Source: Escherichia coli (GTDB taxonomy: Bacteria > Pseudomonadota > Gammaproteobacteria > Enterobacterales > Enterobacteriaceae). Taken from it: DNA of 64,000 nucleotides. A program made the translations under genes and the position numbers. The notes under the pieces are model-generated. The model was given only the letters and a program-made list of their open reading frames with translations, did no database searches and was not told the DNA's origin. Within the stretch, counting starts at the first letter, position 1. The number at the start of each line of letters is the position of its first letter. The stretch is from the NCBI RefSeq assembly GCF_013122565.1, contig NZ_CP053258.1, one strand, 5' to 3'. Shown here piece after piece: positions 25,269-29,143 of the stretch.

Positions 25269-25334
25269 AGAATCATATGCAGCAACCAGGTTGCTTAAGC
25301 AATATTTCCATATGAGTTAAAAGCATATTTTATC

Positions 25335-25801
25335 TCACGATTGCATATTTTTAGTGAAGATTACTTTATCCTCACCAACATCATAGTAATTGCGTATTAT
25401 CGCCTCATTGATAAAGCCCTGTTTTGTATAAAATGCGCGGGCGGCACTAAAATCGATATGGCTAGAGGTCTCTACTAAAAGTAGTCTAGCCTGTTTAATT
25501 GTGAGTTTTTTTCTATTTCGTTGATCAGCAGATGTCCCACTCCCTGGCGCTGATGGGAAGGACTGATCCAGAGCAATAATAAATTCCAGACATCATTTGT
25601 CATCACTTCAGGAGCACAATAGGCAATCCCTGCCAGTCCTAAGTGTTCTGCACTAAACCATAAATCGGCAGATTGACCTGAGAAATAATGTGTTAGTGTT
25701 TTTTGTACATGATGAAGGCCATCTTGATCAAATTGTCCACTGGCAAGCAGCATATCCAGTAATGGTTCAACATCTGAAGGTTTGACTGGTCGTATAAACA
25801 T
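25335..25801 (-). pseudogene. GNAT-family N-acetyltransferase interrupted by a frameshift at an A7 homopolymer
   Basis: Track ORF 25475..25801 (108 aa, ends ...HQRQGVGHLLINEIEKNSQLNRLDYF*) is the N-terminal part. The next frame continues from the A7 tract (top-strand T7 at 25506-25512) as KKLTIKQARLLLVETSSHIDFSAARAFYTKQGFINEAIIRNYYDVGEDKVIFTKNMQS* to a stop at 25335, a RimI-like GNAT C-terminus. One extra A would restore a ~157-aa protein. Confidence 0.6.
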
Positions 25802-26094
25802 GGAATTCCTTATCTATTTATGAATGTTTGAAAATTGTTTGCGTGGAACACGGTCAATCTGAAGTCAATATTTTTGAGAAAGAATAGATGGGTATTTATA
25901 TAAACAAAGAAGCCATTTCTTTAAATATTAATTAAAGTATAACATTAACACCGGACTTCATTGCGACAGGACACGACAAAGCAATTTTGCGGTTTTTTCA
26001 GGGTGCATTACAAAAATTGAATCCTTTATGGACTAATGTGAGAAAATTACGAGGCATAACTATTTTGATATAGTGGACAATCAAGCGTCTCGAA

Positions 26095-26847
26095 TTAACA
26101 ATGACTTTCAGATGCTAAACCATGCAATTGGTAGTATGTCGGATATAGGACAACATTAGGAAATCGGACAGAAAATTCAGCATAATAAAATGACAACTTA
26201 TCTCTTTCTCTCACTTTCTGAGAAATTTCACAAAAGTATAAACTGAGCCAATATGCCTTTATATATAAAAAATACTCATGCTTATTTTTATCGGAAAAAG
26301 CCAAAATTGTGTCAAGTCCATCAAAAATATCTTTATCATGATTTATATGTACTCTTGATGAATTTACAATATCTTTTAATTCGCGGTAAATCTTATTAAA
26401 TAGCGCAACCGATTCACTGTTATTGAATCCATAGTTGATAAAAAGACATGATTTAACATCCGATATTAGTAAGTCGTCATAATCTATCTCAATTCCACAC
26501 AATTTCACGATATACTCAGCTATAGTATTACTTTGCAAGGACTCAACAACTGACAGTAAAACAGATGGATGCAATAATATTTCAAGAAGACTTCTGTCGA
26601 TATTTTTATACACGTTTATTGCAAATTCATCACTCGTCCCATCGATGGTGTCAGATATTAAAAAAAATACATACTCGGGGAGTTCATACCACATATTAAT
26701 TTTAATAATATCACGACACGTATCTTCTAACTGTTGTAATCTATTACCTTTATTCATAACAACCTTAATGTTATTATATGGAATCTTTAGCGTAATCTTC
26801 TTAACTCCGAGGAATTTTACTAAACCGTTGTTAGAGAAAATATGCAT
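26095..26847 (-). CDS. Hypothetical protein (250 aa), AT-rich island ORF of unknown function
   Basis: Track ORF; AT-rich, Asn/Ile/Lys/Tyr-rich; own upstream region of ~270 nt containing a 10-bp inverted repeat. No family recognised. Confidence 0.55.
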   Translation of the reverse strand: MHIFSNNGLVKFLGVKKITLKIPYNNIKVVMNKGNRLQQLEDTCRDIIKINMWYELPEYVFFLISDTIDGTSDEFAINVYKNIDRSLLEILLHPSVLLSVVESLQSNTIAEYIVKLCGIEIDYDDLLISDVKSCLFINYGFNNSESVALFNKIYRELKDIVNSSRVHINHDKDIFDGLDTILAFSDKNKHEYFLYIKAYWLSLYFCEISQKVRERDKLSFYYAEFSVRFPNVVLYPTYYQLHGLASESHC

Positions 26848-27115
26848 ATCACTGACAGCGTGTTATTAATTCACTCTGGTGTTATATAACAAAAATATCC
26901 CCTCCTGTTTTCACCTCTTTGTATTCATGATAGTTAAGGGGAGTGCTAACTTAATATAACACCTGTATTTTCTCACTTTTAGCAAAAACACAAGTTTACT
27001 AAAGAACATAACATTACTGGTTAAACTGTAAAAACAATTGATAACGAAGAGCATCATAAGTTAATAATTTGATTGTTTTCAATGCATTATTACAACTGCA
27101 TTCAGAAGTATATTT

Positions 27116-27676
27116 TTACATAAAGTGTTTATTGATGATTTTTACCAGTTCATCTTTTGCAATAAGCTCTATATTTAAATTAACACACTCAACAATCTGA
27201 AGAAATGTGTCACTTAGTATATGTTCATGATCACCTTTCGTATGCATTTTGACAAAAAGGCCAAAAGATGCGCGAACAAAAGATATCTCGGGGTTATCCC
27301 ATGTAAACCATCGTACTCCACCACCTTCATTCATATACTCCCTTATTCTATGCTGTTCATTATTAAAACTTGAAAAATTAACGTTTTTTTCAAAGAAGGC
27401 ATTTTGCGCTAAAGATATTATTTTCCTGGATAATTCATTACAAACACGAGGGTTCGTGTCAAGAATAAATACCATTACATCAAGTGTAAAATGACGTATT
27501 TTATCTATATTTTTCCTTTTCATTGGTCCTAGCAATGAACCGTAAACTTTATCAATACGTTCATCAAGCAATCTTACCATATTTTTTCTTTCTATTTCGA
27601 TGTAATAATCTGGTTGATTATGTATCCCGCTATTATTTTGATGGTTCATTGTTTTAATTTTTTTGCTTTTTTTCAT
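27116..27676 (-). CDS. Hypothetical protein (186 aa), AT-rich island ORF of unknown function
   Basis: Track ORF; GAGG SD 4 nt upstream of ATG; Lys-rich N-terminus MKKSKKIKTMNHQNNSG; no family recognised. Confidence 0.55.
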   Translation of the reverse strand: MKKSKKIKTMNHQNNSGIHNQPDYYIEIERKNMVRLLDERIDKVYGSLLGPMKRKNIDKIRHFTLDVMVFILDTNPRVCNELSRKIISLAQNAFFEKNVNFSSFNNEQHRIREYMNEGGGVRWFTWDNPEISFVRASFGLFVKMHTKGDHEHILSDTFLQIVECVNLNIELIAKDELVKIINKHFM

Positions 27677-27783
27677 TGTTACCTCGTTGTGTCATGATTT
27701 TAGTAGTGGATGAAAAATAACACCGACTCATCAGATTTTAATTAAGTTTTCATGTTGGCTAATTCGTTTGAAGAGTTACTACT

Positions 27784-28206
27784 TTATTCAATCCAGTAAG
27801 CTAGTCGCTCTCCAGAGCTTAGATTTTCCCTTTTGTAATAAAATACTGTATCGAAATTAAGTGAAATGGTTTCTGCTATAACTTTAAACTGTAATATTGA
27901 CTCGGAATAAAACTCGAGAACAATATTAGCATCATTATTATCATTGATTATTTTTAGTTTCATAAAATCATCAAGAGGATCACAAGTCCAGTACGTATCA
28001 CCACTCATGTAAGATGGTGCATTTATTATTATTTCAAAATTATGATAATAAGAAAGATCACTACTGCCAACGATAATTAATCGCCCATTACTATAGAGAT
28101 AAATTTCAAAATCTATCCAACAGTTATTTCTGTAATTACGCCTGATTTCGTCCACTACATTTTGTTGTTTCATTTTGGATACTTGTAAAATATAATTACT
28201 ACGCAT
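27784..28206 (-). CDS. Hypothetical protein (140 aa), AT-rich island ORF; possible immunity-type protein
   Basis: Track ORF; starts 44 nt after the upstream ORF stop; no family recognised. Confidence 0.5.
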   Translation of the reverse strand: MRSNYILQVSKMKQQNVVDEIRRNYRNNCWIDFEIYLYSNGRLIIVGSSDLSYYHNFEIIINAPSYMSGDTYWTCDPLDDFMKLKIINDNNDANIVLEFYSESILQFKVIAETISLNFDTVFYYKRENLSSGERLAYWIE

Positions 28207-28250
28207 TGATAAAGTGATATATGATCTTATATAGGTCGCACCTGTAAAAT

Positions 28251-28583
28251 TTAAAATGTGTTAACTTCCCTTCTTAACAATACAAACCCCTCAAGGCTTA
28301 ATATTTTATTTTTTAACTCATCATGCCTGATCGTATCATTGATATAGAGAAGATAAGTATACTCAGGATAATCGACCTCATCCACTACACCATCCAAAAC
28401 ATCATAATTTTCTTTTAGAAGAAAATGTTCATGGCTTTTGTCTCCGGACAATAAATAGATTCCGCCATAATAAAGGCTTTCTTTCTCTTTAAATGTGATT
28501 TTTATTACATCTTCTAACATCTTCAGCGCATCATAGATTCCTACTCCAGAATATCCATACAAGTCATAATAACTCATTCCCAT
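28251..28583 (-). CDS. Hypothetical protein (110 aa), AT-rich island ORF; possible immunity-type protein
   Basis: Track ORF; AGGTG SD; starts 21 nt after the upstream ORF stop (operon-like coupling); acidic, Tyr-rich. Confidence 0.5.
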   Translation of the reverse strand: MGMSYYDLYGYSGVGIYDALKMLEDVIKITFKEKESLYYGGIYLLSGDKSHEHFLLKENYDVLDGVVDEVDYPEYTYLLYINDTIRHDELKNKILSLEGFVLLRREVNTF

Positions 28584-28604
28584 TTCACCTGTTTGAATTT
28601 GTAT

Positions 28605-28877
28605 TCATTTACCCTCACGGGATTTAGTAATTACATTCAGCAGTGGCTTTAAGTGTGATGTTACAAAACTATCACGCCTTTGCTCAATTATCATTTGGAT
28701 ATACTGTTTTGTATCAGTGTTACCATACTTAGCCATATAGAACATTACTGCGTCCATTATATCTCTTTCATAGTTTTCTATTGCATCAACATAGACATCA
28801 ACCAGAGTATTAACTTCTTTATTTGATGGATGTTCTGAAAGATTACTCTCAAATTGTGAGAATCTGAATCGTACCAT
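28605..28877 (-). CDS. Hypothetical protein (90 aa), first ORF of the AT-rich island next to yncG
   Basis: Track ORF; occupies the slot where K-12 has yncH/rhsE; no family recognised. Confidence 0.45.
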   Translation of the reverse strand: MVRFRFSQFESNLSEHPSNKEVNTLVDVYVDAIENYERDIMDAVMFYMAKYGNTDTKQYIQMIIEQRRDSFVTSHLKPLLNVITKSREGK

Positions 28878-29143
28878 TACGATTCTCTTAGAAATATCAT
28901 TAAATACGCTACCGCCCTACCCTGATAACATGATCTGCACGGCGCTATCATATCGGTATGTTTCTCTATATGCGAAAAGATGTTTTATTTTCAGATTAAA
29001 TCAAATAGATATTTAATATAAAAAACGAAATTTCATCAATCATATAAATAGTTGTACTAACTTCAATTACCATTCATAGCAAACAAATAGACGCCCAGTT
29101 AACTTTGCCGATGATTTATTAACATTAATCTCCGGCATTATTG

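Follow-up and report, generated by a model that had tools for sequence, protein, structure and literature searches.

A probable immunity-only gene array at the vgrG/rhsE effector hotspot of Escherichia coli

Between the core genes yddH and yncG, an Escherichia coli genome (RefSeq assembly GCF_013122565.1, contig NZ_CP053258.1) carries a short AT-rich island with five small open reading frames (ORFs), all on one strand and none assignable to a protein family. The island occupies positions 25,269-29,143 of a 64,000-nucleotide stretch of DNA, which is called the window here. What do these ORFs, designated A to E, encode? Why do they stand together at this place? Are they still at work, or are they wreckage of a deleted gene cassette? 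Here, we describe a computational analysis of the island that followed a preliminary description made from the nucleotide sequence. The answer reached is that the island is probably an immunity-only array, a set of orphan genes for immunity to polymorphic toxins (Rhs and PAAR-linked) delivered by a type VI secretion system (T6SS), at the vgrG/rhsE hotspot. The five ORFs, with lengths in amino acids (aa), are as follows:

26095-26847, minus strand: ORF A, 250 aa; probable true start Met31 at 26757, giving about 220 aa
27116-27676, minus strand: ORF B, 186 aa
27784-28206, minus strand: ORF C, 140 aa; probable true start Met12 at 28173, giving 129 aa
28251-28583, minus strand: ORF D, 110 aa; probable true start Met3 at 28577, giving 108 aa
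28605-28877, minus strand: ORF E, 90 aa

The revised starts of A, C and D were taken from alignment to homologues; in the case of A, the first 30 codons are probably untranslated because the homologues begin at Met31. The coordinates and sizes that the preliminary description had given for five same-strand ORFs (90, 110, 140, 186 and 250 aa) were exact.

Homologues of the island genes beside polymorphic toxins

Genes in the RhsI position confer specific immunity to the adjacent Rhs C-terminal toxin region (Rhs-CT), and orphan modules of this kind are common at rhs loci (PMC3150448). A homologue lying directly 3′ of a toxin C-terminus, in the same orientation, was found for A, B, C and D. These four are identified as putative immunity genes because their homologues lie 3-17 base pairs (bp) past, or overlap, the C-termini of polymorphic toxins.

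ORF C shares 56% identity along its entire length (E value 8e-53) with WP_000003345, a 129-aa protein of E. coli A8, the gene of which has a 4-nt overlap with the 3′ end of that encoding a 1,617-aa Rhs protein in a VgrG-DcrB-like-Rhs locus. Past the DPLGL junction, the C-terminus of this Rhs protein matches the Pfam family Ntox30 (PF15532; E value 1.7e-11). C is a homologue of the predicted immunity gene of an Rhs-Ntox30 toxin.

From Met31 onward, A is 63% identical to a protein of Pseudocitrobacter faecalis (P0017), the gene of which lies 17 bp 3′ of an ORF of the EndoU_bacteria family (PF14436), within a DUF2169-PAAR-like T6SS cluster in 3 independent assemblies. Another homologue of A (P0021; 52% identity), from an assembly labelled Shigella flexneri, is encoded 16 bp past an 88-aa EndoU fragment, which is itself 72% identical to the Pseudocitrobacter EndoU toxin. 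Homologues of A are therefore found directly past EndoU ORFs in two independent contexts, and A is a homologue of the putative gene for immunity found past EndoU toxins. In some RefSeq and UniRef entries, A bears the name 'aminopeptidase'; this name was rejected because no Pfam or NCBIfam profile backs it, and it looks like a propagated misannotation. At the P. faecalis locus (L009, 2745-3928), the 135-aa EndoU ORF and the 278-aa ORF before it overlap in different frames, and the two may be one PAAR-associated effector that is either split by a frameshift or produced via programmed frameshifting.

ORF B is 60% identical to a protein of Citrobacter portucalensis (P0025), whose gene begins 3 bp past the gene for a protein of 1,481 aa within a VgrG-DUF2169 locus, and 72% identical to an E. 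coli protein (P0023), whose gene starts 3 bp past an orphan Rhs C-terminal fragment or an 89-aa toxin remnant. The partners of these B homologues share one conserved toxin domain, which thus occurs in full-length, orphan and remnant forms. The tail of this domain falls into no class in Pfam, NCBIfam, PADLOC or PDB sequence searches; it carries the residues GKCAEVDA...CVTCNP, an arrangement (CAE...CxxC) that would fit a deaminase-like zinc-binding motif. B is a homologue of the likely immunity gene that follows an Rhs C-terminus with this deaminase-like motif.

In a word-indexed search, D appeared to be confined to Escherichia; an exhaustive HMMER search (E value ≤1e-3) then widened its family to 292 representative clusters, the proteins being about 105 aa long. 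One relative (P0034; 42% identity) is encoded 10 bp past the gene for a 5,356-aa protein with DUF6531, YD-shell and RHS-repeat regions. The gene of another (P0030; 56% identity by HMMER and 55% by tblastn) lies 14 bp past an 80-aa ORF matching the extreme C-terminus of the 5,356-aa toxin, with a GDPLGL piece just upstream. D appears as a member of a widespread unannotated family found directly past Rhs/YD toxins. The relatives of D in AFDB50, all named 'uncharacterized', come from Proteobacteria, Actinobacteria, Chloroflexi and Bacteroidetes. Searches with the partner toxin C-terminus in Pfam, NCBIfam, PADLOC and PDB sequences were empty; its pattern, GS...SDFDVAL...TGPL...FMIF...APSIVIP, suggests a nucleotidyltransferase-like toxin. 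We infer the toxin classes of the B and D partners in this way, and their C-termini may represent uncurated toxin families. An AlphaFold2 model of D, built from a 92-sequence alignment, is confident, with a predicted local distance difference test score (pLDDT) of 84.6. Foldseek comparison of this model with the PDB gave just a weak likeness to alpha/beta sandwiches, the best being the N-terminal domain of spermine synthase; the template modelling (TM) scores were 0.43-0.54, and the likeness is not taken for homology.

ORF E differs from the other four. No relatives of it were found in 100,044 species genomes (one per species) or, by tblastn, in 72,556 plasmids, and a phmmer search against all ORFs of the fetched loci (L001-L023) returned same-locus copies only. 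The assembly collection has the exact PT62-type E protein, named after E. coli PT62, in 1,171 blocks, and it lies at the same locus in 8 of the 8 places listed. The AlphaFold2 model, made from the single sequence, is a helical hairpin of low confidence (pLDDT 65). E may be a gene for immunity or a small accessory one.

How do the five proteins compare with curated families? Against Pfam, NCBIfam, PADLOC and PHROGs, no significant match was obtained with any of A-E, and for none of the five did a curated family of immunity proteins (Pfam Imm*, SUKH and so on; NCBIfam) give a profile match above noise. A, B, E and the D-family profile, used as queries against PDB sequences, likewise matched nothing, and no nuclease, ATPase, methylase or other effector or enzymatic domain was detected in A-E by any library. 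All these libraries agree with the preliminary description, which could assign the ORFs to no family. A, B, C and D represent four different families of small cytoplasmic proteins. No hydrophobic N-terminal signal sequence is obvious in A-E, as judged by eye rather than with a predictor, which fits cytoplasmic nuclease-type toxins as the targets.

The preliminary description had also raised the possibility of a defence module. On that view, the island would serve in anti-phage defence or as an accessory module of another kind, and its association with toxin loci would be a coincidence. Such a module might be rare, AT-rich, confined to certain strains and made up of unannotated genes, as the island is, and E does match MAD7, of the methylation-associated defence system (E value 0.0019 in PADLOC and 0.013 in NCBIfam). 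These matches, however, cover about 55-80 residues of a helical protein of 500 aa at about 15 bits and are probably compositional; the only other PADLOC match of E was NsnC (E value 0.028), and A-D had none. Homologues of four of the five ORFs occupy the immunity position past toxins, and the libraries gave no effector domain. The defence alternative gains no support from PADLOC and is highly improbable. This reading, like that of a prophage, was rejected because neither PADLOC nor PHROGs gave a significant match.

The yddH-yncG slot

The position of the island can be understood from what other strains carry between the same two genes. In K-12, the order is yncG-yncH-rhsE′-ydcD-yncI′-ydcC-pptA-yddH, where rhsE is a pseudogene; the K-12 content that the preliminary description had given (pptA, rhsE, ydcD and others) was right. 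In E. coli 042 and DG351-2, the order is yncG-PAAR-VgrG-M35 metallopeptidase-273-aa ORF-ISAs1 fragment-B-A-yddH, and in 2013C-4282 it is yncG-yncH-VgrG-Rhs core protein-132-aa ORF-group II intron-ISAs1-A-yddH. A is thus the gene nearest yddH in both types of locus. In MFDS1022581, the slot reads yncG-E-D-C-129-aa ORF-group II intron-ISAs1-IS256 fragment-yddH, ORF A being missing, and that of E. fergusonii starts with E-D-C in the same way and continues with ISAs1. The rhsE gene of EDL933 has been placed within a vgrG island (PMC7216683). With PAAR-VgrG-M35, VgrG-Rhs-immunity or rhsE′ present in other E. coli, the yddH-yncG slot is, judging from its gene content, the vgrG/rhsE T6SS effector hotspot of this species.

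In the window, the effector genes of this hotspot are gone. A tblastn search detected no remnant of Rhs, VgrG, PAAR, M35, EndoU or toxin C-termini across the 64 kb (E value ≤10 for the island), and no DPxGL junction or Rhs C-terminal fragment lies upstream of any island ORF, which bears out the earlier remark that Rhs core, DPxGL junction and toxin domain are absent. The spacers between the ORFs measure 21-358 bp, those of E-D, D-C and C-B just 21-107 bp. As no spacer contains a toxin fragment, the layout is not the classical one of orphan rhs-CT/rhsI modules. The proposal that an Rhs hotspot here carries an immunity array, orphan or degraded, thus holds for four of the five ORFs, by the position of their homologues and by the content of the slot.

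The contrast in composition between the island and its flanks, described earlier on inspection, has been put into numbers. At 26000-29143, the GC content is 0.31, compared with 0.533 (left) and 0.505 (right) in the flanks, and Asn, Ile, Lys and Tyr are each about twofold or more as frequent in the island proteins as in the flanking core proteins, so that both the AT-richness and the unusual amino-acid usage claimed for the island stand. In 500 dinucleotide-preserving shuffles of 26000-29143, the mean number of ORFs of at least 90 aa on both strands was 0.26, and five on one strand were obtained in 0/500; the plus strand of the real sequence has zero ORFs of this length. The core flanks, with yddH and yncG as the flanking genes, are 98-99% identical to those of E. 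coli PT62. Among complete E. coli genomes, the whole island is present in 10/5426, the C-D-E block in 12/5426 and A with B in 186/5426, in line with the view that it is strain-specific.

A prophage or mobile-element remnant with cargo genes could also have a low GC content. ISAs1, IS1, IS256 and a group II intron are indeed found at the locus in related strains, and one AFDB relative of D is named 'Phage protein'. The island of the window itself, however, has no integrase, transposase, recombinase or att-like repeats and no significant PHROGs match, and its position between the same core genes is fixed in every strain examined. We give this explanation slightly less credence still than that of a defence module.

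Junctions and assembly of the array

If the effector genes were lost, how did the array come to its present form? Three further features of the island bear on this question:

28899..29143, minus strand: yncG-side intergenic segment, 245 bp, common to PAAR-VgrG strains; candidate promoter/leader of the array
27734..27753, minus strand: putative deletion/recombination scar between the E-D-C and B-A blocks
25338..25801, minus strand: GNAT acetyltransferase gene with a frameshift, at the island's yddH end

The segment next to yncG is about 89% identical to the yncG-PAAR interval of E. coli 042 and many other genomes, and the shared sequence stops about 19 bp before the ATG of E. K-12 and 2013C-4282 have a different yncG-side allele, with yncH. 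Two sigma-70-like matches lie inside the segment on the minus strand (29066-29039 and 28976-28947), and it may serve as the promoter and leader of the array. A core of 37 bp within it (about 28904-28940) recurs at 97% conservation across thousands of genomes including K-12 and could be a terminator of yncG or a promoter element.

The scar reads ATG-AAA-ACT followed by a stop codon, which corresponds to the leftover first codons of the 129-aa fourth gene of MFDS1022581 and E. fergusonii. Past it, the sequence changes to the 042-type leader of B, with BLAST breakpoints at 27737 and 27740. In other strains, a group II intron and ISAs1 separate the two blocks. Because of these junction sequences, the array looks like a fusion of a yncG-side block (E-D-C) with a yddH-side block (B-A-GNAT) by deletion of the intervening DNA. 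Joining of E-D-C to B-A in this way would have removed VgrG, PAAR and Rhs genes, a group II intron and ISAs1, as they are arranged in other strains.

At the yddH end, a tblastn search with the intact 155-aa GNAT protein of PT62 as query matched in two pieces in different frames, which overlap at 25508-25514, and the 108-aa ORF at 25475-25801 is the 5′ part of this gene; the GNAT gene had correctly been called broken. Strains of the 042 type keep just its 3′ end, and window positions 25269-25487 match them at 95%. Nothing visible ties the gene to the immunity genes, and NCBIfam matches it best, though weakly, to AAC(6′)-Ia (E value 1.8e-4).

Possible protection, constraint and decay

What would an array of this kind do? 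By analogy with RhsI and CdiI, each of A-D would bind and neutralise a matching toxin domain in the cytoplasm: A an EndoU RNase, B a deaminase-like Rhs-CT, C an Ntox30 toxin and D a YD/Rhs-CT. A cell without a matching toxin gene at the locus could thereby survive attack by toxin-bearing neighbours. Transcription would run from the leader adjoining yncG. A more ambitious reading, which we offer only tentatively, is that the array is an actively maintained shield that would make the cell resistant at once to EndoU, Ntox30, deaminase-like and YD-CT toxins from competing Enterobacteriaceae, in a lineage whose effector cassette at this locus is lost, transcribed from the former PAAR-vgrG leader, with E as a new immunity family or a small regulator.

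Several known systems resemble the array in part. Orphan rhs-CT/rhsI modules (Poole et al., 2011, PMC3150448; rhsE-ydcD in K-12) occupy the same hotspot with small, AT-rich, co-directional genes in cassettes that vary by strain, and four genes of the window have homologues in the RhsI position; in contrast to these modules, the window has no Rhs C-terminal fragment or DPxGL before any ORF. The signature of toxin C-terminus/immunity cassettes that had been seen in the island therefore stands as to immunity genes at an Rhs hotspot, whereas the toxin half of the cassette is absent, the array being immunity-only. The T6SS islands with VgrG and PAAR (042; 2013C-4282 and EDL933) lie in the identical yddH-yncG slot; the window has the 245-bp yncG-side segment in common with them, A and B in common with the 042 type and A alone with 2013C-4282, whereas it lacks VgrG, PAAR, effector and any ISAs1 remnant and carries E-D-C instead. 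As for the CdiI/RhsI immunity known for EndoU, Ntox30 and deaminase toxins, the partners of A and C match PF14436 and PF15532; A-E themselves differ from those immunity families in matching no Pfam or NCBIfam model and no sequence of a solved structure, their families being uncurated.

In the acquired interbacterial defence (AID) clusters of Bacteroidales and the orphan immunity arrays of Vibrio cholerae, orphan immunity genes shield non-producers. The island resembles these in having several immunity genes against different toxin classes (here A-D) with toxin genes absent nearby; it differs in having five genes and no recombinase or mobile element, in looking like a deletion product rather than a dedicated acquisition system, and in that its protection is proposed by analogy. 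Were the shield reading true, the island would be an enterobacterial counterpart of the AID clusters, with four or five uncurated immunity families, that of D spanning several phyla.

Orphan immunity genes decide survival of contact-dependent killing in the gut, and cataloguing them helps to predict strain competition. The concept of orphan immunity is already established, so that the gain here is annotation and testable toxin/immunity pairs and no new mechanism: four families called 'hypothetical' or mislabelled as 'aminopeptidase' can be tied to toxin classes. To this are added an array that is immunity-only and apparently made by deletion, which offers a clean E. coli case of an effector island reduced to antidotes, and the placing of D in a widespread, uncurated multi-phylum family.

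Do the genes still work? This is the sole point on which the immunity array differs from a rival explanation, in which the island is silent, non-functional wreckage, remnants of a deleted VgrG/Rhs cassette that drift to loss and give no protection. Ratios of nonsynonymous to synonymous substitution (dN/dS) were computed pairwise by the Nei-Gojobori method from small counts. They are 0.04-0.19 for C, 0.22-0.48 for D, 0.23-0.60 for B, about 0.5 for E and 0.3-0.5 for A over a core of 211 codons (up to 0.74 when all 250 codons are counted), compared with 0.07-0.25 for yncG. All values are below 1 and those of C are low, which argues against mere wreckage, as do the five intact ORFs of the window, set against the 0.26 expected from shuffling, and the many exact copies of the PT62-type E protein. 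The values of 0.3-0.6 for A, B, D and E, on the other hand, suggest relaxed constraint, and they accord with wreckage, as do the disappearance of the VgrG, PAAR and Rhs genes, the frameshifted GNAT gene and the lack of a convincing promoter or terminator. Related strains, among them PT62, which is the closest complete genome, and several other assemblies, carry an IS1 insertion or have a B that is split, an A cut to 165 aa or an E that is shortened; a frameshift interrupts B in PT62 (L001, 5916-6477) and further strains, and in MFDS1022581 and E. fergusonii it is E that has a frameshift or is shortened. Such lesions, together with the ratios of 0.3-0.6, fit decay as well as function. The window's copy is among the more intact versions of the array. 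The picture is one of genes that are constrained, C most clearly, yet lost piecemeal in some lineages, and we hold the wreckage explanation, with which a good part of the evidence agrees, to be possible, though doubtful.

Besides the relaxed constraint and the lesions in relatives, other points weigh against an array of working immunity genes. E has no toxin-linked relative and none lying directly past a toxin, and one relative of D (P0032) stands alone in toxin-free surroundings. A-D are 42-72% identical to their toxin-linked homologues, and an RhsI protein is specific to the toxin with which it is paired (PMC3150448), so that protection against extant toxins is uncertain and specificity has possibly diverged. 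The search for matching toxins covered the 64-kb window, and such toxins may lie elsewhere in the genome. Promoter-like sites are not enriched in the island (22 against 22.7 expected from shuffles), and no terminators were found in it. Moreover, DNA so rich in AT is often silenced by H-NS in E. coli, and such silencing is plausible here.

The history of the island relative to its neighbour is also of note. In comparison with MFDS1022581, the synonymous divergence (dS) is 0.53 for yncG and 0.12-0.17 for C, D and E. This suggests that the island has recently been exchanged horizontally, or that recombination has occurred in yncG, because the island is far more alike between the lineages than the adjacent yncG.

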